A stretch of 64,000 nt of DNA from a virus, in the IMG/VR virus record IMGVR_UViG_3300021962_000054, positions 31,796 to 95,795 of that record; one strand, written 5' to 3'. The notes under the pieces are model-generated. The model saw only the letters and a program-made list of their open reading frames with translations. It searched no databases and was not told where the DNA came from. The translations under genes and the position numbers were made by a program. Shown in pieces: positions 31,053-41,791 of the stretch. Numbering within the stretch: position 1 is the first letter of the stretch; each line of letters begins with the position of its first letter.

Positions 31053-31861
31053 GCGATCTACTACATCTCAATACTAATTACTACGTGAACCCTAACGGGC
31101 TGGCATTTGATTTTAGAGATAATAGTGAAATAACTTTGATAAAATTTTTAGGCTATGAAGTAAAACAAAAACCTATCGAACATTTGTTAAGATTTTGGAA
31201 AACTCTGTCACGAAAGTTAGCTGGTTCTGATTGCAACATAGTTATAGTAACAGATAGAGGTAATAATAGACATTATATCGCCAATTATTTTGGCATAGAA
31301 AATGTTTGTAACAATGTTTGGGAGTTATCGAAATTACTAAACGACAAAATCTACCTAAATAGTAAAACAAAACGATGTATCGTGTTCGCAGATTGCGGTG
31401 GCACTATCCCCGCTATTTTGAGTTCTACCATAGTAAAATATCATAGCATAAATGTGACTACTCCCTATCTGACAATAGTCGGTTCAGAAAATGAGTTCGA
31501 TACTAATCAATATACATTGTGGTATTCTAGGGAGTTGTGTGTTGAAATATATCACGATGCACAGGAATTTAGGGATTATTACGATACTTTACAATATTAT
31601 GATCGTTATACACAAGAACCAGACAGTTTATTGAATATGCATTGGGCATCTAATGTAAAAGGAACGGACCTATATTTCAGAAACAGGGCAAATCAATTAC
31701 CAAAAAGATCAAATATCACAATCACAGATCATGTTTTACCGGCGCATATAGAAGGCCACAATCTAACAAAGTATCTATGGGCAAATAAGCAATATCAAGG
31801 GCTTCTAAAACAACAGTTATTGATACAAAAAGGATATCTAGATACTGTCACAAAACTGTAA
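31049..31861 (+). CDS. hypothetical protein
   Basis: 270-aa ORF; ADCGG may be an alpha/beta-hydrolase-like elbow. Confidence 0.65.
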   Translation: MSDLLHLNTNYYVNPNGLAFDFRDNSEITLIKFLGYEVKQKPIEHLLRFWKTLSRKLAGSDCNIVIVTDRGNNRHYIANYFGIENVCNNVWELSKLLNDKIYLNSKTKRCIVFADCGGTIPAILSSTIVKYHSINVTTPYLTIVGSENEFDTNQYTLWYSRELCVEIYHDAQEFRDYYDTLQYYDRYTQEPDSLLNMHWASNVKGTDLYFRNRANQLPKRSNITITDHVLPAHIEGHNLTKYLWANKQYQGLLKQQLLIQKGYLDTVTKL

Positions 31862-31965: not shown

Positions 31966-34900
31966 ATGAGTCAATTATCTGGTAAGATTTGGAGCAGGCT
32001 AACAGTTAGTTTAGCTGTCGCTTCAATAGCTCTAGTGTCACTCATGGGTAATCCCGTGAATGCGCAAGAGACGGCTGCCAGTGCTGCAGGTGTTGTTCAA
32101 TCTGAACAGGGTGCAGCTAGCGGCCTATCAGTTGAAGTGCTACACGTTCCATCAGGAACAGTCAGCAAATCAACTACTGATGCAAACGGTAGATATGTTC
32201 TACGCGGTTTGCGTGTAGGTGGTCCTTATAAGGTCACTGTCAAAGGTGAAGGGTACAAAACTGTAGTATTAGAAAATCAGTTTTTAGCCCTCGGAGATAA
32301 CGGTAACTTGAACCTCGTTACAGAATCAAGTGATCTAGCAGAAGTAGTAGTGTTAGCCGGTCGTGCTGATCTAGTATTTGATAGTTCACGCACTGGTACA
32401 GGTACTACAGTTAGCAACGAACAGATCGTAGCACTCCCAACAATCAGTCGTAATATTCAGGATCTCGTAAGAACAGATCCTCGTATCGCTCAGACTGATA
32501 AAGAGCGTGGTGAAATTTCAGCAGGTGGACAAAACACTCGCTTCAACAACATTCGTATTGACGGTGTCAGCACCAACGATGCGTTTGGTCTTGAAGCAAA
32601 CAATCTACCAACTGATCGTCAACCAATTCCGTTGGATGCAATCGAATCAATCAATATCGCATTGACAGATTTCGACGTTGCTCGTTCGTCATTCACTGGC
32701 GCAAGCATCGACGCAATCACTAAGTCAGGTACAAACAAGTGGAGGGGAACTTCATACTTCCTCACACGCGATGCTGACTGGGTCGGAAAGCGCAATGGTC
32801 AAAAGTTCAACGGTTTCGATAAAGAAGAAACAGTTGGCTTGACTATCGGCGGTCCAATCATTGAAGACAAGTTGTTCGTCTTTGCTTCTTATGAGAAGTT
32901 TGAACGCGCAGCATTGGCTCCAACATTTGGTCCAACTGGTTCTGATAGCGCACAGATCGTAACAGGTATTTCACAAGCACAACTTGATGAAGCCGCAGCA
33001 ATCGCTAAAGATGTATGGGGTTTCGACGCTGGTTCATTCAATCCTCCCGGTGCTCTAAACACTGAGATTGAAGATATCATGGTCAAGTTTGACTGGAACA
33101 TCAATGACAGTCATCGTGCTGCTCTACGTGTCAATCGCACAGAGCAAAGCGATCCATACTTACGTAATATCGGACCACGTGATCTTTCATTGAGTGGTTA
33201 CTGGCACATCAATAACAAGAAGTTTGAAAGTGCGGTTGCTCATTTGTATAGCAACTGGACAGACAATCTTTCAACTGAGATGTCAGTCAGTGTCGCCAAT
33301 CAAAGTTCACTTTGGGATATCGGCGATCCTCGTCCAACAGTTCGCATCTGCTTGAACAGTTCATCCTGTTCTGGTGCTGATAGCATTTGGTTGGGTAGCG
33401 AGAGATTCCGTCATGTGAACATTCTTGAAACTGAAACATTGAACGCATTCGCAGCAGCAACTTATGTTGTTGGTGATCATGCTATCAAGTTCGGTGCTGA
33501 ATACGAAACAAGAGATATCTTCAATCTCTTCGGACGTGATCAGTTTGGTTACTATGAGTTCTATGGCTTGAATAACTTCCGTTCAGGTACACCAGCAGTT
33601 TACAACCTTTTCTATCCAGTCAATGGTGATGTAAACAGCCGTGCTGCTGCTTGGACATTAGAGAATGCTGCCGTGTTCTTACAGGATACTTGGACAATCA
33701 GCCCAACGTTGAATGTCACAGCAGGTGTTCGTGTTGATATGCCAATCGTGGGAGATACTCCTCCATACAATGCTGTTGCCAGTGACTTCTTTGGTCTACG
33801 CAACGACAGCACTCCAGATGGTAACTATCTCATTCAACCACGTGTTGGATTCAACTGGCAACCAGAATGGTCTGATCGTAAGACACAGGTTCGTGGTGGC
33901 GTTGGCTTGTTCCAAGGTATCGCCGCTAACGTGTGGTTGAGCAATCCATTCAGCAACAATAACGTGACTCAGGGAGCAATCTTTGATAATCGTGCTGCTC
34001 AGAATGGCATCGTGTTCAGTCCAGATCCAAACAATCAGCCAGGAGTTCGTCCACCACCAGGACTTGGTGGTAACGTTGACTTCTTGAGTCCAGACCTACA
34101 ACTCCCAGCAGCATATAAAGTTTCTTTCGCTGTTGATCATGAGTTGCCATGGTACGGATTGGTTGCAAGTTTTGAGACTGTTCTAACTGAAGTCGATGAA
34201 GGCATTCGCTATGTGAAGCCAAACTTAGGCGCACCAACAGGAGTTGCTCCAGATGGTCGTCCATTGTATTGGTCAACTGTGAATCCTGCTACCTTCACTG
34301 GTTCAAGTTCACAGCGTACAGCCAACACAAATCGTGACTTTGGTGTAGATTCAACGATTGCTCTACCAACATCGAAAGGTGATGGTAAGCAGTTCACTGT
34401 TTCATTACAAGGTCCTCAGAATGAGAACTGGTACTGGAACGTTGGATACACCTACACTGAAGCAACTGAAGTCAATACATTGACATCTTCACAAGCCGCA
34501 TCAAATTGGAACAACGCAGTTCGTGTTGATACCAACGCCGATGTTGCCGAGAAGTCAGTGTATGCCATCAAAGATCGTTTCACGGCAACTGTAAGTTATC
34601 GTAAGAAGTTCTTTGCTGACTTAGTAAGCTCAGTTGGTGTGTTCTATGAAGGTCGCATTGGTCGCCCATACACTTTCACTTTCGTCAATGACGCAAACGG
34701 CGATGGTCGTGTAAACGATCCATTCTTTGTGCCAAACAGAGGTGATGTTGTATTCAAGGGCGGTGCTGCTATGGAGCAAGCATTCTTTGATTATCTTGCT
34801 TCAAACGGTGAACTCGCTAAGTATCAAGGTGGTATTGCTGAAGTAAACAACAACAATGCTCCTTGGGTTCATAACGTTGACATTCGCCTCTCACAAGAAT

Positions 34901-35157
34901 TGCCAGTCTTTGGTGATGTGAAGGGTGAAGTATGGCTCGACATCATGAACGTTGGCAACATGATCAATAAGGATTGGGGTGTGATTGAAGAAGTCGGATT
35001 CCCAGGTGCCTTTGGTGTTGCTCGTTTCGCTGGTGTTGACGCTTCAGGAAAGTATGTCTACGATTTCCGTGCTTCGGATCTACGTGACTTGACTCTCCGC
35101 GACAACCGTGGTGAATCACGCTGGGCGATGCAGCTCGGTGTCAAGTTCAAGTTCTAA
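31966..35157 (+). CDS. TonB-dependent receptor (Oar-like, N-terminal carboxypeptidase-regulatory-like domain)
   Basis: Signal peptide, TDANGRY..GLRVGGPY, plug motif IDGV...DAIESI, amphipathic beta strands, terminal Phe. Confidence 0.93.
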   Translation: MSQLSGKIWSRLTVSLAVASIALVSLMGNPVNAQETAASAAGVVQSEQGAASGLSVEVLHVPSGTVSKSTTDANGRYVLRGLRVGGPYKVTVKGEGYKTVVLENQFLALGDNGNLNLVTESSDLAEVVVLAGRADLVFDSSRTGTGTTVSNEQIVALPTISRNIQDLVRTDPRIAQTDKERGEISAGGQNTRFNNIRIDGVSTNDAFGLEANNLPTDRQPIPLDAIESINIALTDFDVARSSFTGASIDAITKSGTNKWRGTSYFLTRDADWVGKRNGQKFNGFDKEETVGLTIGGPIIEDKLFVFASYEKFERAALAPTFGPTGSDSAQIVTGISQAQLDEAAAIAKDVWGFDAGSFNPPGALNTEIEDIMVKFDWNINDSHRAALRVNRTEQSDPYLRNIGPRDLSLSGYWHINNKKFESAVAHLYSNWTDNLSTEMSVSVANQSSLWDIGDPRPTVRICLNSSSCSGADSIWLGSERFRHVNILETETLNAFAAATYVVGDHAIKFGAEYETRDIFNLFGRDQFGYYEFYGLNNFRSGTPAVYNLFYPVNGDVNSRAAAWTLENAAVFLQDTWTISPTLNVTAGVRVDMPIVGDTPPYNAVASDFFGLRNDSTPDGNYLIQPRVGFNWQPEWSDRKTQVRGGVGLFQGIAANVWLSNPFSNNNVTQGAIFDNRAAQNGIVFSPDPNNQPGVRPPPGLGGNVDFLSPDLQLPAAYKVSFAVDHELPWYGLVASFETVLTEVDEGIRYVKPNLGAPTGVAPDGRPLYWSTVNPATFTGSSSQRTANTNRDFGVDSTIALPTSKGDGKQFTVSLQGPQNENWYWNVGYTYTEATEVNTLTSSQAASNWNNAVRVDTNADVAEKSVYAIKDRFTATVSYRKKFFADLVSSVGVFYEGRIGRPYTFTFVNDANGDGRVNDPFFVPNRGDVVFKGGAAMEQAFFDYLASNGELAKYQGGIAEVNNNNAPWVHNVDIRLSQELPVFGDVKGEVWLDIMNVGNMINKDWGVIEEVGFPGAFGVARFAGVDASGKYVYDFRASDLRDLTLRDNRGESRWAMQLGVKFKF

Positions 35158-35178
35158 TGAATTTGAAATATGACAACA

Positions 35179-35209
35179 AGAAGGGGAGCAAAAACTCCCC
35201 TTCTTTTTT
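35179..35209 (+). terminator. intrinsic terminator
   Basis: AGAAGGGGAG/CTCCCCTTCT followed by Ts. Confidence 0.85.
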
Positions 35210-35385
35210 GGATATAGAAAGTCCGTTATGGCTACTATTGTATTGTCTAATATCATGCACTATTGGTATAGGCTTGATATTGACTATGTTATTTTTTGTG
35301 TCAAACTTTGCGTAAAATATACAACTATATTCATTCAGTAATATAGTATTACATTATTGTTACATTCAACTAGGTAAATATTCTT

Positions 35386-35481
35386 ATGTCCCGAGAGGTT
35401 CATATCTAACATTCCTATAGGTCTTTGACTTATGTGTATGTTATTTGGATCGAACGGGACATCATGCCATTTATTTGGCAT
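35386..35481 (+). promoter_or_regulatory. structured 5' leader of the porin gene
   Basis: ATGTCCCG/CGGGACAT long hairpin plus ATGCCA/TGGCAT, between TAAATA (35375) and the RBS. Confidence 0.55.
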
Positions 35482-35503
35482 AACAACAAGGAGATAAAAT
35501 TAT

Positions 35504-36481
35504 ATGCGTAAAGCATTTTTGACATTAGTTATGTTAGGATCACTTTCTGCAACTGCTATTGCTGGTGAACTAAATCTAAATGGTGGCATCGGCTATCGTT
35601 TTGACAGTGTAGAACTAGCAGCAGGACCAAAATCAGAAAAAGATCGTCTTGGAGCAGAGTTGGTATTATCAAACAAGGTCAACGACAAGATCAATGCTGT
35701 CGTAGGTCTACGTACTGGTAGTTTCAACAGCCAATACGATGATATGGGTCCAGGTGGTCAGTTGAAGGATGTGAATCTACACCTAGCATATGTTGAATAC
35801 GCTGCTATGGATAATGTCAAGGTAACACTTGGCAAGATGCATCAACCTTGGGCAAGTTCACCAAGTCTATTTTTTGACCGTGACGTAAAGCCAGAAGGCG
35901 TGGCAGTAAGTTGGAAGAGTGAATCAGGATTGTTTGCTAATGCTTCAAGTCTAAAACTTGTAGAAGGCGGCATCAACGATGATTCTAAGGTACAGAGCCT
36001 ACAAGTCGGCTTGCATAAGAATCTAGCAGGACTTCACTTCAAGGGCGCAGTAGCACTACATGATCATAAGATCAAGCACGTTGCTATCGGCGGCATCAGT
36101 GATGCTAAATTACAGCAAGCATTTGCTTCAGTAGGAACAAAATTCGCTGGTAAGCCAGTAGTATTGTTCGCAGACTACATGAAGAACGACAAGGCAAGTG
36201 CAGAGGACACAGCCCTAGCATATGGTATCAAGTTTGGACATGCTAAGAAACCACAAGAGTGGGATCTAAGCGTATTCCATCAAGATGTAGAAGCCAATGC
36301 TCAGTTTGGTTTGTGGAATGATTCTGACTTTGCTCTATCACAAGGTGGTCACAAAGGCTATGGTCTAGTCGGTGGCTATGTTGTAGCAGACGGTTGGAAA
36401 GTAAACGCCAAGTATTTCGATGTTGAAATCGGAAATGCTGATGTAAAGCGTCTACAACTAGACTTGAATTACATGTTCTAA
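35504..36481 (+). CDS. outer-membrane beta-barrel porin (putative porin family)
   Basis: Signal peptide; LAYVEY..., TLGKM, FDRDVKPEG; terminal RLQLDLNYMF. Confidence 0.85.
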   Translation: MRKAFLTLVMLGSLSATAIAGELNLNGGIGYRFDSVELAAGPKSEKDRLGAELVLSNKVNDKINAVVGLRTGSFNSQYDDMGPGGQLKDVNLHLAYVEYAAMDNVKVTLGKMHQPWASSPSLFFDRDVKPEGVAVSWKSESGLFANASSLKLVEGGINDDSKVQSLQVGLHKNLAGLHFKGAVALHDHKIKHVAIGGISDAKLQQAFASVGTKFAGKPVVLFADYMKNDKASAEDTALAYGIKFGHAKKPQEWDLSVFHQDVEANAQFGLWNDSDFALSQGGHKGYGLVGGYVVADGWKVNAKYFDVEIGNADVKRLQLDLNYMF

Positions 36482-36967: not shown

Positions 36968-37459
36968 ATGCTTTACATTTCTTATCGTGGTATTTACGAC
37001 GGCACCAATTATGAAGACGCTAACACTCCTAGCCAGTTAGGCAAAGCTATGGGCATGGGCTTTTCATGCATGATCGATATATGGAAAGTGGACGACAAGT
37101 TCTATCTAGGTAATGATCAACCATTGACTGAAGTCACAGAGAAATACATACAGGGCAATCGTTGGTGGATCAATGCTAGAAACACTGCAATGCAAAATTG
37201 GTTACCTACACAGAATCAGAAACTATATCCTAACTGGTTCTACTTCACTACTCCTACTCCTCCTCCGCCATATGTCACAGCAAGTAACGGTAAATTGATC
37301 ACGCCGGGCACCGTGCCTGTCAACAATGATAGCGTTATCTTTTTACCTGAGATTGATGATAAGGGATTGTTTAGCACAGTGCATCTACGCAATTATGGAG
37401 TAATCAGCACTTATCTAACGTTTATAAGACGCATTAGGCAAGAGGGTGCTAGGTACTAG
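36968..37459 (+). CDS. glycerophosphodiesterase/PLC-like protein (catalytic His apparently substituted)
   Basis: ISYRG..ANTP..GF..MIDIW..YLGND resembles ISHRG..ENT..EIDVW..LGHD. Confidence 0.55.
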   Translation: MLYISYRGIYDGTNYEDANTPSQLGKAMGMGFSCMIDIWKVDDKFYLGNDQPLTEVTEKYIQGNRWWINARNTAMQNWLPTQNQKLYPNWFYFTTPTPPPPYVTASNGKLITPGTVPVNNDSVIFLPEIDDKGLFSTVHLRNYGVISTYLTFIRRIRQEGARY

Positions 37460-37896
37460 AGATGCCTTACACAATAAGCATTTTTACCTAATTCACTATC
37501 TTCCCAATCACTAGCTAACTTGAATCCAGCTTTATTATAAGTTGACCAGCTATTATATTTGGGATAGCTCCATATATATCCTGCACCTTTACTAGTAGCA
37601 AAATCGATAGATTCTTTCAGTAAGACTGTGCCTATACCTTTATTTCTAAAGTCTGGATTTACATATAAGCCCCTGCTGCGATATCCCCCGTCGCTACATG
37701 GATGAACGCTATTCACTCCTACTATCATATTATCGATCTTATAAGCAAAAAAAGTAGCCGGTTTTACCATGTTATCTAAACTATATCCGCCTAGGAAACA
37801 CATAGCACTTGTTTCTGTGATCTCTGATATCCTATCAGGCCACAAGTCGTGTTTCCAAATTGGGAAAATCTTAGAAAAATCTGCTTGAATGACCAT
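37456..37896 (-). CDS. GNAT acetyltransferase
   Basis: RGLYVNPDFRNKGIG acetyl-CoA motif; Y.KAGF. Confidence 0.9.
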   Translation of the reverse strand: MVIQADFSKIFPIWKHDLWPDRISEITETSAMCFLGGYSLDNMVKPATFFAYKIDNMIVGVNSVHPCSDGGYRSRGLYVNPDFRNKGIGTVLLKESIDFATSKGAGYIWSYPKYNSWSTYNKAGFKLASDWEDSELGKNAYCVRHL

Positions 37897-37957
37897 ATGT
37901 TTTACTAAAGAATTGTATTTGGCATAAATATAATAGTATACTGTCAGGAGTCATACA

Positions 37958-39820
37958 ATGAAGTATTTAGTAGATTTTAAGAACACCGCAACAGATGCAG
38001 AAATCCAGAGCTATTTGTCAGCACATGGCTGCACAGTCCTAAAAGAGTGGGACAATTTTGATAAAGTTTTTCTCGTAGAGGTCGCATCAGCACCACCAGT
38101 AACTGATCTCACCGAACACGTTGTTCTTGAAGAGGGAGTCGCAATCACCCCACATTATGACATCAATACACACTGGGGCCGTCATGACGATCCAAATTCA
38201 GAGAGTATCACAGTAGATACTGGTAATGAACAAGACTGGTGGAAAAATTACAGTTACGCACAACCTGTATTTGATGAGCCAACTCTTACTTTGAAAAGAT
38301 TTGGAGATCATATTAGCGTTTATGTAATGGATAGCGGTTTCACTGATAACTCTAACGGCGAATTCGCAGGTGTAAATGTAGTCAATCTTTACAGTATATT
38401 AGGCACTGATTTTGCTGATTGCAACGGTCACGGAACAGCTATGTCAAGTTTGATATCAGGACGTACATGCGGAATCACTAACGCGACTATCAAAGTAGTA
38501 AAAATATTTGATGATAACACTCCTACATTACAGAGTCAGTTTCTTGATGCATTAGATGCTATCATCGCCGATCATGATCCTAGCAAGTTCGGCGTAGTAA
38601 ATTGTAGCTGGACTATTCCAAAAAATGCTTGGATCGAATCTAAATTCCGTACTTTGACTCAAAGCGGAGTTTATGTCGTTGCAGCTGCCGGTAACACAGG
38701 CGTTGAGATTGAAGACGTTACACCTGCTAGCATGGTAGAAGCTCTTACAGTCGGTGCTTATAATAAAGATTTAGAACCTTGCTCATTTTCTGCTTATAGC
38801 GATCTAAATACTTCTGATCAGCTCGGAACAACTAATCACGGCGAATTAGATGGTTGGGCACCCGGGGATAGAATTTGGTCATATGGTACAGTGTATGGTT
38901 GGATTCAGGGAACATCCCCTGCCGCAGCTATCACCTCAGCTATAGTAGTAAATAATTTACATCGATATTGCGGTAACACTGGATCAAGACTTCCATACAC
39001 TCATGACTGGAATTTGGATAGCGCAAATCCTAATACAAGTCAAGTGCTAGCATTTTCAAGAAAAGATTTACTTGACCTTAGCGATCCTAAATATGCTAAC
39101 TCTGTAAATAAGATAGCAACTATCAACGATACTGCAATCAGTCCTACAGTTCCCCCAACTGATGAGTTGAACTACGGTATGCCAGCTGGGCAAAAAGATT
39201 TATTAGGATATGTAGTAGATCCACTAACAACTAAATCAATAGTTGATATAACTCCATTACCATCTTTCTGTCAATTATTACCTAGCGCAGGTTTATATGC
39301 ATCTCCTTCTTTAGAAGATGGACCACAAGACGGTGAAGTTTATAAACAATACGTATGGCAATTCACCAAGACAAATTTTGAAGATGTTTCAGAGACAGTG
39401 ACAGTCAATATATACGTAACTAAGGAAGATTTTCAACCTAGCGATTTACCTGATGATCACGTTATCAATATAACGCTAGCAGCAAACTGCTGGAGAAATT
39501 TCTATGTTCCTAGCTGCACAATTAGCACTTATTTTGCAAATTGCTTGAACAATTGCCCCAACAGTCAGTGCTGCTATCACATTTACAAGTCAATGGCATT
39601 CTGTGAATGCACTAACGCTTTCAGTGATCGACGACTAAAATCTAATATTGTAAGAATAGGAACACATAGCTTAGGAATAGGCTTATATGAATACGATATA
39701 TTTGGTAAAAGAACTACAGGCGTGATGGCAGAAGAATTATTAGAAGTCATGCCTCAAGCAGTATCAGTTCATTCTAGCGGATACTATATGGTCGACTATG
39801 GTATGATAGGGATGAAATGA
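37958..39820 (+). CDS. subtilisin-like S8 protease fused to an 8-Cys segment and a C-terminal S74 chaperone
   Basis: VMDSG, GHGT, AAAGN, GTS catalytic motifs; Cys-rich 39488-39610; SDRRLK...GVMAEE...VDY. Confidence 0.88.
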   Translation: MKYLVDFKNTATDAEIQSYLSAHGCTVLKEWDNFDKVFLVEVASAPPVTDLTEHVVLEEGVAITPHYDINTHWGRHDDPNSESITVDTGNEQDWWKNYSYAQPVFDEPTLTLKRFGDHISVYVMDSGFTDNSNGEFAGVNVVNLYSILGTDFADCNGHGTAMSSLISGRTCGITNATIKVVKIFDDNTPTLQSQFLDALDAIIADHDPSKFGVVNCSWTIPKNAWIESKFRTLTQSGVYVVAAAGNTGVEIEDVTPASMVEALTVGAYNKDLEPCSFSAYSDLNTSDQLGTTNHGELDGWAPGDRIWSYGTVYGWIQGTSPAAAITSAIVVNNLHRYCGNTGSRLPYTHDWNLDSANPNTSQVLAFSRKDLLDLSDPKYANSVNKIATINDTAISPTVPPTDELNYGMPAGQKDLLGYVVDPLTTKSIVDITPLPSFCQLLPSAGLYASPSLEDGPQDGEVYKQYVWQFTKTNFEDVSETVTVNIYVTKEDFQPSDLPDDHVINITLAANCWRNFYVPSCTISTYFANCLNNCPNSQCCYHIYKSMAFCECTNAFSDRRLKSNIVRIGTHSLGIGLYEYDIFGKRTTGVMAEELLEVMPQAVSVHSSGYYMVDYGMIGMK

Positions 39821-40737
39821 TCGATTGGACTAATTTTAGCGTATCAAATAATACACTAAATTTTGACTGCAAAAGAAAAAATAAAGAGCCGCATCTAACA
39901 GGTTTAGAAGCGGCTTTTTATAATATCAATTATATCACAGAAAATTATCCTGCGCCGTATACCTTATATTTGAGCGGCGGCGTCGATAGCCAAGCTATGC
40001 TATATGCCTGGGTAAAATCAAAAGTGCCGTTCAACACATTTTCAGGAATCTATAATTTTGATAGTAACTGGAATGATCTCGCGACATGTAATTTGTTCGC
40101 AAAAATATTAGATGTGAAAATTTCCTATCATCATTTTGACCTAATAAATTTTCTTGAAACAGAACATCATGATTACGCCATAAAATATAAAACAGGAAGT
40201 CCCCAATTTACTACATTTATAAAAATGGCGCAAATGACAGAAAAAGGCACAGTGATTTTTTCAGGAGAATGTAGACCTTTTTTTACATTTGTAAGAGATG
40301 ATCCTCCCCTAGCTATTCCAGACCTAAACAGTATGGGATTATATTATTACGGAAGCATAGATAAACGACCAATCGTGCCGTGGTTTTTTATCGAAACAGA
40401 AACGATAACATATTCTTGGATTTATGATCATAATATCACACACAAACCTGTGATAGATTCTTTTGAAGTACGACAGCAAAATAAAGAAATGAAATTAGGA
40501 TACAAGCGAAAGATTGACATCTATCATCAAAATGATTATCCTGTTATTCCGCAAGATAATAAACAAAACGGTTTCGAAAAAATCAAAGACTATTATGACA
40601 CACAGAATAAAAAACCTGTTACCCTACAAGATAGATTAGCAAAAGGATTTTTCAGATCCGATAGAAATTTTGATTTATTATTCCGAAATAAATATGAGGC
40701 TAAACTCGTAAAATATAAATACAACATAAACTGGTGA
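39817..40737 (+). CDS. PP-loop ATPase (asparagine-synthetase-like N-type ATP pyrophosphatase)
   Basis: LYLSGGVDSQ; IFSGE; K..GFE. Confidence 0.65.
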   Translation: MIDWTNFSVSNNTLNFDCKRKNKEPHLTGLEAAFYNINYITENYPAPYTLYLSGGVDSQAMLYAWVKSKVPFNTFSGIYNFDSNWNDLATCNLFAKILDVKISYHHFDLINFLETEHHDYAIKYKTGSPQFTTFIKMAQMTEKGTVIFSGECRPFFTFVRDDPPLAIPDLNSMGLYYYGSIDKRPIVPWFFIETETITYSWIYDHNITHKPVIDSFEVRQQNKEMKLGYKRKIDIYHQNDYPVIPQDNKQNGFEKIKDYYDTQNKKPVTLQDRLAKGFFRSDRNFDLLFRNKYEAKLVKYKYNINW

Positions 40738-40741
40738 GTAC

Positions 40742-41014
40742 ATGTTTGATAAATTGAAAAATAAAATGGCAGCTCTGCAAAAAATTGCAGAAGAAAAAGC
40801 TGTAGAAAAATTATTAGTAGATAAAGTTCATCCAGACGTCCAGCTAGAACGTATTTCTATCTGTCATTCATGTGAAAAGTTTTACAAACCTACAGCACAA
40901 TGCAGGTTGTGCGGATGCTTTATGAACGTAAAAAGCTGGATGCCAGAGCAGGCCTGCCCGATAAAAAAATGGGGACATGCAGAAGTTCATAGTAATGGTA
41001 TAATACCAGATTGA
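40742..41014 (+). CDS. small Cys-rich protein (DUF6171-like)
   Basis: R..IC..C...QC.LCGCFM..K.....CP..KW. Confidence 0.75.
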   Translation: MFDKLKNKMAALQKIAEEKAVEKLLVDKVHPDVQLERISICHSCEKFYKPTAQCRLCGCFMNVKSWMPEQACPIKKWGHAEVHSNGIIPD

Positions 41015-41508
41015 TAAAAATTACTTTTATATATAAAGGCTCTATAAAGCCTCCCGATATATATTGTAAACTCGCAGAAAAAGTAACCAATCTCGTCAAT
41101 ACATTATACGTATTACCGAAAATTATAGAAGTTCAATTTGAGGAAATGGGTCCAAGCATTTATGGTATGACTATGCTCGATCCACGATTTCCTAACAGGA
41201 TCCGTATCAATCAGGATTTATCATTAGAAGAATTTCTACTGCCCTTGACCCATGAACTTGTACATCTTCACCAGATTTATACTAATAAATTACAAGCGAG
41301 ATCGGGCGGCAAGATACTTTGGGAAGGACAGATTTATAAGTCTGATTCATCTAAACTGTCTTATGATGAGTATCTAAACTTACCCTGGGAGTTTGACGCT
41401 AATCAAAAACAAAAGCAGATTTTGGAATTCTTGAAGCAACATAAAAGACGCATAGACAATCAAATCAAAAAGGAATTACAGTTTACCCAAAATACTATAC
41501 AACAGTAG
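41011..41508 (+). CDS. HEXXH metallopeptidase-like protein
   Basis: THELVHLHQ ... LPWE. Confidence 0.75.
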   Translation: MIKITFIYKGSIKPPDIYCKLAEKVTNLVNTLYVLPKIIEVQFEEMGPSIYGMTMLDPRFPNRIRINQDLSLEEFLLPLTHELVHLHQIYTNKLQARSGGKILWEGQIYKSDSSKLSYDEYLNLPWEFDANQKQKQILEFLKQHKRRIDNQIKKELQFTQNTIQQ

Positions 41509-41556: not shown

Positions 41557-41766
41557 GTGTCTTTTGCAAATTATCCTTTTAGGCCTACTGTATTATTTGA
41601 TGTAAGTAATCCTGAGCATAGACAATGGCTTGGTGAGTTTACAAAATCTAGGTCTTGGGGCAAGTGTCCTGTAAAATTCGCTACATCAGGTAATGGCAAT
41701 ACTATTGCCCAGATGCAGTTACGATTGTTACAATATTACACAGACCAGGAATTCAATAAGGCTTGA
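41557..41766 (+). CDS. hypothetical phage protein
   Basis: AGGAG RBS; FD.SN.EHR, SWG.CP. Confidence 0.7.
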   Translation: MSFANYPFRPTVLFDVSNPEHRQWLGEFTKSRSWGKCPVKFATSGNGNTIAQMQLRLLQYYTDQEFNKA

Positions 41767-41791
41767 CATCGGATTGGATACCCACTATAAT
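41763..41791 (+). promoter_or_regulatory. sigma70 early promoter
   Basis: TTGACA-N17-TATAAT. Confidence 0.85.

Follow-up and report, generated by a model that had tools for sequence, protein, structure and literature searches.

A late gene module of uncultured T4-like aquatic myoviruses that may encode a targeted protease with a hypervariable cysteine-rich tip

The gene module described here is located in a 64,000-nucleotide stretch of viral DNA (positions 31,796 to 95,795 of IMG/VR record IMGVR_UViG_3300021962_000054), hereafter called the window; the full virus record measures 95.8 kb, and its final 64 kb make up this stretch. All coordinates refer to the window. The module consists of three genes on the plus strand, which encode a multidomain subtilase of family S8 carrying a hypervariable segment with eight cysteines near its C-terminus, a PP-loop enzyme whose predicted fold resembles that of AsnB, and a small cysteine-containing protein of the DUF6171 family. 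We tentatively interpret this arrangement as a targeted protease with a variable binding tip, encoded by a conserved late module of uncultured T4-like aquatic myoviruses. The window also encodes a ribonucleotide reductase and collagen-like tail-fibre genes, and its glycosyltransferase is 74% identical to the counterpart in the Synechococcus myoviruses S-CAM7 and ACG-2014f, and therefore the source is a fragment of a T4-like aquatic myovirus. Matching DNA is present in estuary, marine and freshwater metagenomes. A literature search found no paper describing the three-gene module.

The first gene (37958..39820, plus strand) encodes a 620-residue protein composed of a prodomain-like region, an S8 catalytic domain, an immunoglobulin (Ig)-like domain, a cysteine knob and an S74 domain. 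A word-indexed search yielded 426 relatives of this protein, every one of which is metagenomic or derived from uncultured viruses. Conservation in this protein was judged from the best 120 of these 426 relatives and from an alignment of 24. The catalytic domain (residues 118-332; 38309..38953, plus strand) is matched by Pfam Peptidase_S8 (E 5e-14) and is of the proteinase-K type, in that a PDB profile search is led by proteinase-K-like enzymes and the PatA-type cyanobactin protease (E 1e-22 to 1e-23), the latter ranking second, with PCSK9 also among the matches. The triad formed by D125 (DSG), H158 (HGT) and S320 (GTS), together with the oxyanion residue N246, is invariant in the 24 relatives and nearly so in the 120, and the triad is kept in all forms of the protease considered here.

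The N-terminal region (residues 1-112; 37958..38293, plus strand) is highly conserved, with M1, D6, F7, Y19, K29, W31, W94 and W95 invariant. Its nearest named clusters in a language-model comparison, which are treated as a lead only, are all subtilase prodomains (Inhibitor_I9 at 0.91, Fervidolysin_NPro and CspB_prodomain), and the region is probably a prodomain of this kind. Inspection by eye revealed no signal peptide at the N-terminus (MKYLVDFKNTATDAE). Downstream of the catalytic domain, an Ig-like beta-sandwich (about residues 400-507; 39155..39478, plus strand) ends in a conserved P-x-D-H/D..I-T-L sequence. This domain is modelled by AlphaFold with a predicted local distance difference test (pLDDT) score above 90 when residues 361-620 are submitted with 120 homologues, and Foldseek relates it to the Ig-like domains of Rib, PKD, cadherin and dystroglycan proteins (E 2e-4 and weaker). 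Pfam, searched at E<=10, yields no match for residues 1-115, 395-510 or 505-556. Along the protein, conservation is high in the N-terminal region, followed by the S8 domain, the moderately conserved middle domain and finally the cysteine segment.

This last segment, termed the knob (residues 511-551; 39488..39610, plus strand), begins three residues past the confidently folded Ig-like domain with no linker between the two. Its cysteines at positions 511, 520, 529, 533, 538, 539, 549 and 551 form the pattern C-x8-C-x8-C-x3-C-x4-CC-x9-C-x-C. These eight residues and K544, the sole conserved non-cysteine residue, are essentially invariant among the 120 homologues, and the intervening loops are the most variable part of the protein; it is this constancy amid variation which argues that the cysteine pattern is not due to chance. 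Mean column entropy reaches 3.10 bits in the knob loops (range 3.0-3.8); the Ig domain averages 1.97 bits, and the N-terminal region together with the S8 domain 1.31.

Close gene pairs reveal the same concentration of change. The alleles of loci L002 and L022 differ at 24 of 114 nucleotides in the knob and at 22 of 1539 elsewhere (p 3e-17), with nonsynonymous divergence (dN) of 0.35 and 0.010, respectively. For L043 and L044, the knob carries four nonsynonymous and no synonymous changes, with two nucleotide changes in the remainder (p 6e-4), and L029 and L030 differ by two amino acids in the knob and by none of 519 elsewhere. The segment is thus hypervariable on a fixed cysteine frame, as the first-pass annotation of this DNA had anticipated. 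A diversity-generating retroelement was considered as a source of this variation and rejected. No template repeat of 39440-39640 is present elsewhere in the 95.8-kb contig, where the next-best match covers 30 nucleotides at 87%, and substitutions between close alleles hit all four bases without an adenine bias. Contigs from four runs cover 37456-41014 only patchily, and two observations made on them were not used as evidence. At 39535-39620, contigs of a related strain from two metagenome runs match the flanks at 96-100% and break off or diverge inside the knob, as the coexistence of several knob alleles in a single population would predict. The protease gene is also overlaid by small contigs from one metatranscriptome, and these could reflect DNA carry-over.

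The composition of the knob bears on whether its cysteines form disulfides or hold metal. Among 118 distinct tails, 111 have eight cysteines, five have 10 and two have six (one of which ends at a contig end), and an odd number is never observed. In the 10-cysteine tails the two extra cysteines were acquired together, and divergent clades carry other even frames. We infer from these even, pairwise-gained counts that disulfides are favoured over metal sites. The C-x3-C and C-x-C spacings are compatible with a cystine-stabilised alpha-beta (CS-alpha-beta) fold, and an inhibitor-cystine-knot frame fits equally well. A PDB profile search with the knob returned a single, non-significant match to the defensin-like structure 2n69 (E 0.54).

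An alternative that cuts across all the readings discussed below is that the eight cysteines hold two zinc sites or an iron-sulfur cluster in the cytoplasm, possibly loaded by the DUF6171 protein. It would agree with synthesis of the protease, which has no signal peptide by eye, in a reducing cytoplasm, with the zinc-ribbon-like character of DUF6171 and its co-occurrence with the knob, and with the unfolded state of the knob in AlphaFold, a method that takes no account of metals or disulfides. However, the C-x3-C, CC and C-x-C elements are typical of disulfide-rich mini-proteins rather than zinc knuckles, no histidine or aspartate ligands are conserved, and extreme loop variability with insertions and deletions is usual for disulfide scaffolds. 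The existence of variants with six and 10 cysteines, with pairwise gain, likewise speaks against metal binding, which we consider quite improbable.

Four residues past the knob, the sequence SDRRLK begins at S556 and opens a predicted S74 intramolecular-chaperone and self-cleaving domain (residues 556-620; 39623..39817, plus strand). Pfam Peptidase_S74 matches residues 556-602 only marginally, scoring 22.7 bits where 22 is required, and a relative, P0021, scores 29.2 bits. Structural and fibre families in PHROG match residues 553-616 (E 1e-13), Brucella phage structural proteins match the S74 region at 48% identity, and the AlphaFold pLDDT of the domain is 87-94. In the S74 domain of MyRF, the lysine lies five residues past the serine, cleavage occurs N-terminal to the catalytic serine, and trimers are required (PMC8326128). 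The same spacing of S556 and K561 therefore predicts a cut between F555 and S556.

Most relatives reach a comparable end by other means. Among the best 120, about 18 carry an S74 domain, about 12 a Hint domain, and about 90 are short forms that end just past the C-x-C element. In 92 of 117 distinct tails, only one to three residues follow the final C-x-C. The Hint forms have a glycine-rich linker behind the knob, followed by a Hint-superfamily domain (PT-HINT 36 bits, Intein_splicing 34-35 bits) that starts with cysteine and ends the protein, and which therefore can only cut itself off. In a quick maximum-likelihood tree of the first 500 protease residues, with approximate likelihood-ratio test (aLRT) support only, S74 forms occupy four or more separate positions and Hint forms two, and this scatter suggests that the same mature end has been reached repeatedly. 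A stop codon, S74 and Hint are thus all predicted to give a mature protein with a free tip just past the cysteine segment, since two unrelated self-removing domains and a stop codon occupy one position. The proposal of the first-pass annotation that the S74 domain frees the C-terminus is strengthened by these relatives.

The second gene (39817..40737, plus strand) overlaps the protease stop codon through its ATG as ATGA and encodes a 306-residue PP-loop protein assigned by fold to the AsnB-type adenylating enzymes. It lacks a glutaminase domain and has the motif SGGVDS at residues 53-58, of which S53, G54, G55, D57 and S58 are invariant. A search yielded 214 relatives. Of 52 homologues with at least 200 residues, 49 have an intact SGGxDS motif, and about 35 residues other than the ATP-pyrophosphatase motif are also invariant. 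In the VIA comparison, the AlphaFold model (pLDDT 88.7) matches human and E. coli ASNS/AsnB with Z 13.6-14.0 and a root-mean-square deviation of 4.4-5.0 Å over 272-275 aligned residues. Beta-lactam synthetase follows at Z 12.3-13.2 (11.5-13.2 when beta-lactam and carbapenam synthetases are taken together), and LarE and NAD synthetase at Z of about 10, over the core only (160-170 residues). A Foldseek search agrees with an AsnB-like fold. The protein has no Pfam match, its score with TIGR01536 is 14 bits (E 0.014) where 267 would be required, PF00733 is present in just 14% of the members of one related cluster, and a PDB profile search with the family gave no meaningful match. By its modelled fold, the protein appears to be AsnB-like and to lie outside the curated family PF00733/TIGR01536, in agreement with the asparagine-synthetase fold named by the first-pass annotation. 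Sulfur-transfer chemistry is unlikely because no cysteine is conserved.

Clusters related to the PP-loop protein are almost purely viral. The sole clear cellular homologue found is in a Bdellovibrio metagenome-assembled genome (hhalign 99.7%, E 6e-27), where it is flanked by a leader-binding protein of a thiazole/oxazole-modified microcin (TOMM) cluster and a SagD-type YcaO protein and, on the opposite side, by a SagB dehydrogenase. An 80-residue candidate precursor, with a core rich in cysteine, serine, threonine and glycine at its end, lies upstream. This cluster (L065:4272-13189) also holds a 393-residue protein of unknown function, a 967-residue sulfatase-like protein and a fatty-acid-hydroxylase-like protein. 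An S8 gene about 6 kb away (L068) encodes a secreted protease of a generic kind, carrying a signal peptide and a PPC domain, and was not counted as linkage. The presence of a stand-alone AsnB-like synthetase domain in a TOMM cluster may mark C-terminal modification.

Asparagine synthetase (AS)-like enzymes are known to adenylate the C-terminal carboxylates of peptides, yielding amides through TsrC, ScdTA and AsnO and a nitrile through PesC (PMC13060819). This precedent, together with a free C-terminus that has been engineered repeatedly, makes a carboxylate of the protease protein the likeliest substrate by analogy, and the AsnB-like enzyme probably modifies such a carboxylate, likely that of the C-terminus. 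A separate observation concerns relatives of the protease that lack the knob (L007, L008, L057, L058 and L060), all of which end in K-N after otherwise variable acidic tails. A conserved K-N end beside a retained AsnB-like enzyme recalls the C-terminal asparagine substrate of PesC.

The third gene (40742..41014, plus strand) encodes a 90-residue, zinc-ribbon-like protein of the DUF6171 family (PF19668; E 6e-7, 30.1 bits against a threshold of 27, profile positions 34-80), which is also matched by phrog_13558 (E 3e-13). An N-terminal helix precedes the pattern C-x2-C..C-x2-C-x-C..C-P-x2-K-W, in which C41, C44, C54, C57, C59, C72, P73, K76 and W77 are invariant.

The association of the three genes was surveyed in 64 related loci from viral and metagenome contigs, in which all open reading frames were scored with family profiles; the counts come from non-redundant loci that have sufficient flanking sequence at either end. 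In all 30 informative loci, no more than 1.1 kb separates the PP-loop gene from the protease gene, the typical gap being 0-25 nucleotides, and for DUF6171 a distance of up to 1.5 kb is seen in 23 of 26. The gene orders observed are S8-PP-DUF, DUF-S8-PP, S8-DUF-PP and PP-S8, and S8 identity falls to as low as 32%. Because the linkage survives these changes in order and this divergence, it appears to be functional rather than merely inherited. Loci with Hint forms (L026, L028 and L031) retain both partners.

The knob has been lost in two lineages. One is the clade of K-N-ending proteases mentioned above, and the other is L053, which is nested with 98-100 support among the knob-bearing L051 and L054. 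Both retain an intact S8 triad and a PP-loop enzyme with the SGGxDS motif. However, the first has no DUF6171 gene nearby, and L053 has only a truncated remnant of 43 residues. DUF6171 therefore appears to be tied to the knob and the PP-loop enzyme to the protease itself, and the substrate of this enzyme, if it is the S8 protein, would not be the knob itself. An apparent exception is L005, in which DUF6171 lies 16 kb from the protease, in a second module copy with the order S8(Cys tail)-PP-DUF6171-S8. This 185-kb virus record (L005 and L067, G001:C1:144665-147907) has at least two further tandem module copies and a PP-S8 pair 16 kb away, the tandem consisting of a protease with a different eight-cysteine tail, a PP-loop gene, DUF6171 and a second protease. 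A second partial copy is also seen at L045:1-1560, and such extra copies suggest that some phages keep several protease and knob variants.

Boxes of the TATAAATA type serve as late promoters in T4-like phages. The T4-type core TAAATA (within cATAAATA; 37925..37930, plus strand), as read from the sequence, lies 33 nucleotides before the S8 start. Of 46 non-redundant loci, 41 have the core 23-47 nucleotides ahead of the S8 start codon, compared with an expectation of 0.078 per 90 nucleotides. Since no terminator is evident between the module and a perfect sigma-70 promoter at 41763-41791 (TTGACA-17-TATAAT), the module appears to form a late operon. That promoter opens a block of small genes and marks a sharp late/early boundary directly past the module.

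Late expression, the S74 domain and the hypervariable C-terminal tip, which is typical of receptor-binding proteins, are also features expected of an ordinary trimeric virion protease or fibre-like protein. In such a case, the PP-loop and DUF6171 proteins would be assembly chaperones, or would have a different substrate and share only their regulation with the protease. Chaperone genes commonly sit directly downstream of phage fibre genes, and DUF6171 does track the tip. However, the ATP-pyrophosphatase motif and the other invariant residues of the PP-loop protein point to catalysis rather than to passive chaperoning, and its adjacency to the protease outlasts three gene orders and S8 divergence to 32% identity. 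Moreover, the N-terminus resembles a protease prodomain and not a baseplate adaptor, and most family members lack S74. We therefore regard this explanation as unlikely, though it is to be taken seriously.

The first-pass annotation had correctly placed the S8 triad, the eight-cysteine spacing, SDRRLK, the ATGA-coupled PP-loop gene, the CxxC protein and the divergent GNAT gene, and had read them as a system for peptide maturation, in which the subtilase cuts upstream of the cysteine segment. In this reading, which resembles the pathways of ribosomally synthesised peptides with post-translational modifications (RiPPs) or a toxin system, the S8 domain would cut just past the ..I-T-L junction and a free disulfide-rich peptide of about 45 residues would be released at lysis, its other end being set by S74, Hint or a stop codon. 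The large protein would represent a leader with a built-in protease, in the manner of borosins, and the PP-loop enzyme, perhaps along with the GNAT, would tailor the peptide, with C-terminal amidation as one possibility. A hypervariable core on a fixed cysteine frame behind a conserved junction does resemble RiPP and conotoxin precursors, and the logic of the free C-terminus holds equally here. RiPP C-termini are modified by AS-like enzymes (PMC13060819), and the homologue found in a TOMM cluster is consistent with this. S8 proteases are common as RiPP leader peptidases, and the PatA-type protease is the second-best structural match. More weakly, the junction x-I-T-L resembles, when aligned by eye, a strand S-I-T-V at the predicted prodomain processing site, a cut being expected near V86|D87.

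Several observations speak against peptide release. The Ig domain joins the knob without a linker, and the S74 domain is typical of trimeric fibre and spike proteins that retain their tip. No knob on another carrier was found by word search among shorter proteins, and no stand-alone knob or precursor genes were found. A full HMMER scan of 1.84 billion representatives gave two knob matches, both N-terminally truncated members of the protease family, although the 53-position profile has little power. The knob-less lineages, with their intact protease and PP-loop enzyme, argue that this pair has a role independent of the cysteine peptide. The GNAT gene is linked only loosely (7 of 13 loci). In support of the annotation, the synteny that it expected is kept for the PP-loop and cysteine proteins down to 32% identity, with rearranged orders. 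The RiPP-like reading as a whole is thus rather doubtful, and the simpler alternative raised at the same time, a trimeric protease with a variable cysteine-rich tip, is at least as well supported.

A bolder form of this idea, which we rate as slightly less probable again, is that of a self-contained peptide factory, in which the protease excises its own four-disulfide knob, the AsnB-like enzyme caps its C-terminus as an amide or nitrile, and lysis frees it as a defensin- or knottin-like peptide directed against other cells or competing phages. If true, the module would define a RiPP-like family of viral toxins or signals with an arms-race signature and three interchangeable routes to the peptide end (stop codon, S74 and Hint).

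The targeted protease thus remains the reading we favour, albeit with some reserve, and its steps can be outlined as follows. The prodomain would fold the S8 domain, and the eight cysteines would form four disulfides once the protein meets oxidising water. The S74 domain would trimerise the C-terminal part and then cut itself off between F555 and S556, leaving the knob as a free C-terminal tip like that of the short and Hint forms. The tip would stay attached, as suggested by the absence of a linker after the Ig domain and of stand-alone or differently carried knobs. The Ig-like domain would act as a stalk that carries the knob, and the knob would bind a variable partner, most likely a cell-surface structure, and so aim the protease. 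The action would take place outside the cell, with the protein mounted on the virion or set free by lysis. The PP-loop enzyme would adenylate one of the carboxylates of the protease protein, with the exposed C-terminus as the most plausible site, to give an amide or another acyl product. DUF6171 might serve the knob through folding, metal or redox handling, or presentation to the PP-loop enzyme.

Certain findings weigh against this interpretation. The disulfides require exit from the reducing cytoplasm and no oxidase is evident, and in AlphaFold modelling with 120 homologues the knob has a pLDDT of 38-52 and no secondary structure. The Hint forms would leave a longer, glycine-rich tail, and the residues past the C-x-C element are not conserved, which is unusual for a substrate of an enzyme that recognises a C-terminus. 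The persistence of the protease and PP-loop pair in both knob-less lineages is a further point, as is the limited nature of the tree noted above. Synonymous divergence (dS) between L002 and L022 is also raised in the knob (0.27, compared with 0.03 elsewhere), and thus recombination between alleles may contribute to the divergence alongside selection. Lastly, no cultured phage carries the protease gene: in a tblastn search of 50,697 phage records, the protease gave S74 matches only and the PP-loop protein gave none.

Several known systems share parts of this architecture. Kexin/furin-type convertases and PCSK9 have the same domain order, consisting of a prodomain, an S8 domain, a beta-sandwich and a C-terminal cysteine-rich domain, and in these proteins the cysteine-rich module mediates partner binding. 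However, the phage catalytic domain is closest to proteinase K, the sandwich is Ig/Rib-like rather than a P-domain, and the cysteine module is a single hypervariable knob of 41 residues in a protein that lacks a signal peptide and occurs in a phage context. Fibres and spikes with S74 domains (endosialidase, T5 pb1 and K5 lyase) and MyRF likewise have a Ser/Lys dyad spaced by five residues directly behind the mature tip, and the presence of S74 varies among homologues. In contrast to these fibres, the phage protein has an Ig-like domain and a cysteine knob upstream instead of a triple beta-helix and is a protease with its own prodomain, and most family members lack S74, with Hint in its place in some. 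Domains of the Hedgehog/Hint autoprocessing type are present in about a tenth of the relatives, at the C-terminus behind the knob, but not in the gene of this window.

The SGGxDS motif of the PP-loop enzyme is common to the AS-like enzymes that act on C-termini (TsrC, ScdTA, AsnO and PesC; PMC13060819), lasso cyclases, and beta-lactam and carbapenam synthetases. The phage gene lies beside one whose product has a predicted exposed C-terminus and has a homologue in a RiPP cluster, but its family is almost confined to phages. The whole chain superposes on the synthetase domain of AsnB/ASNS (Z about 14 over 272 residues). It differs from these enzymes in its length of 306 residues, with no glutaminase domain, in scoring below threshold with the sequence models Asn_synthase and QueC, and in that the AsnB motif S-G-E-G reads S-G-N/E-x. 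RiPP pathways that use S8 leader peptidases (LanP, PatA/PatG), and fusions of enzyme and core (borosins, OphMA), likewise combine a variable C-terminal core, a subtilase and an adjacent ATP-dependent enzyme of the tailoring type, although the phage module has no class-defining modification enzyme, and its protease and PP-loop pair persists without the core. Among disulfide-rich mini-proteins, the C-x3-C and C-x-C elements fit the cystine-stabilised helix motif of CS-alpha-beta defensins, and the last six cysteines fit the C-C-CC-C-C frame of knottins and VI/VII conotoxins. These mini-proteins share hypervariable loops on a fixed cysteine frame, whereas the knob terminates a protein of about 550 residues made in the bacterial cytoplasm.

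Other genes surround the module. The divergently oriented GNAT acetyltransferase gene (37456..37896, minus strand; Pfam Acetyltransf_1, E 4.6e-11, 43 bits against a cut-off of 20.7) lies 61 nucleotides from the S8 start. Its association is loose, as noted above, being within 5 kb in the 7 of 13 informative loci and in varying positions. A 163-residue protein (phrog_34507; 36968..37459, plus strand) is often encoded beside it. Downstream of DUF6171, a 165-residue protein with an HELVH (HExxH) motif (phrog_10499; 41011..41508, plus strand) is possibly encoded by the last gene of the late operon, and its association is weak (within 5 kb of the protease in 4 of 13 loci). Both phrog_10499 and phrog_34507 proteins recur near the module and near GNAT in several loci, with shifting positions.

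Just upstream of the module (31966-36481), the window encodes an intact TonB-dependent receptor of 1063 residues (CarboxypepD_reg, Plug and barrel) and a porin of 325 residues. A porin of 63-74% identity is encoded again a few kb or less from the protease gene in many related loci, and the receptor in three (L002, L004, L011, L013, L016, L018, L022-L025, L032, L037, L039, L040 and L044 for the two together). A link between these phage-made outer-membrane proteins and a targeted protease is conceivable, such as the replacement or destruction of receptors. In six loci (L002, L016, L022, L034, L039 and L042), the 90 nucleotides before the protease start contain a sequence resembling the 3' terminus of a tRNA gene (..GGTTCGAATC..CTCCGCCA), with the late promoter behind it. 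The module thus abuts a tRNA array in those phages, as does the wider region of the present window.

Viral metagenomes from estuarine, marine and freshwater sites commonly contain the module, which would therefore represent a frequent late function of large aquatic phages for which no published description was found. The knob offers one of the clearest signatures of diversifying change that can be read from sequence alone, in that genes which are otherwise 98-100% identical differ almost only there. Such diversification would mark an interface in an ongoing conflict, for instance one that involves recognition of the host, destruction of a receptor or an effector that is released. The repeated exchange of stop codon, S74 and Hint amounts to a natural experiment, which suggests that a free C-terminal tip is what matters. 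An AsnB-like enzyme tied to a protein-coding partner would offer a tractable entry to the ATP-dependent modification of a phage protein, and the knob family may supply new disulfide-rich scaffolds.

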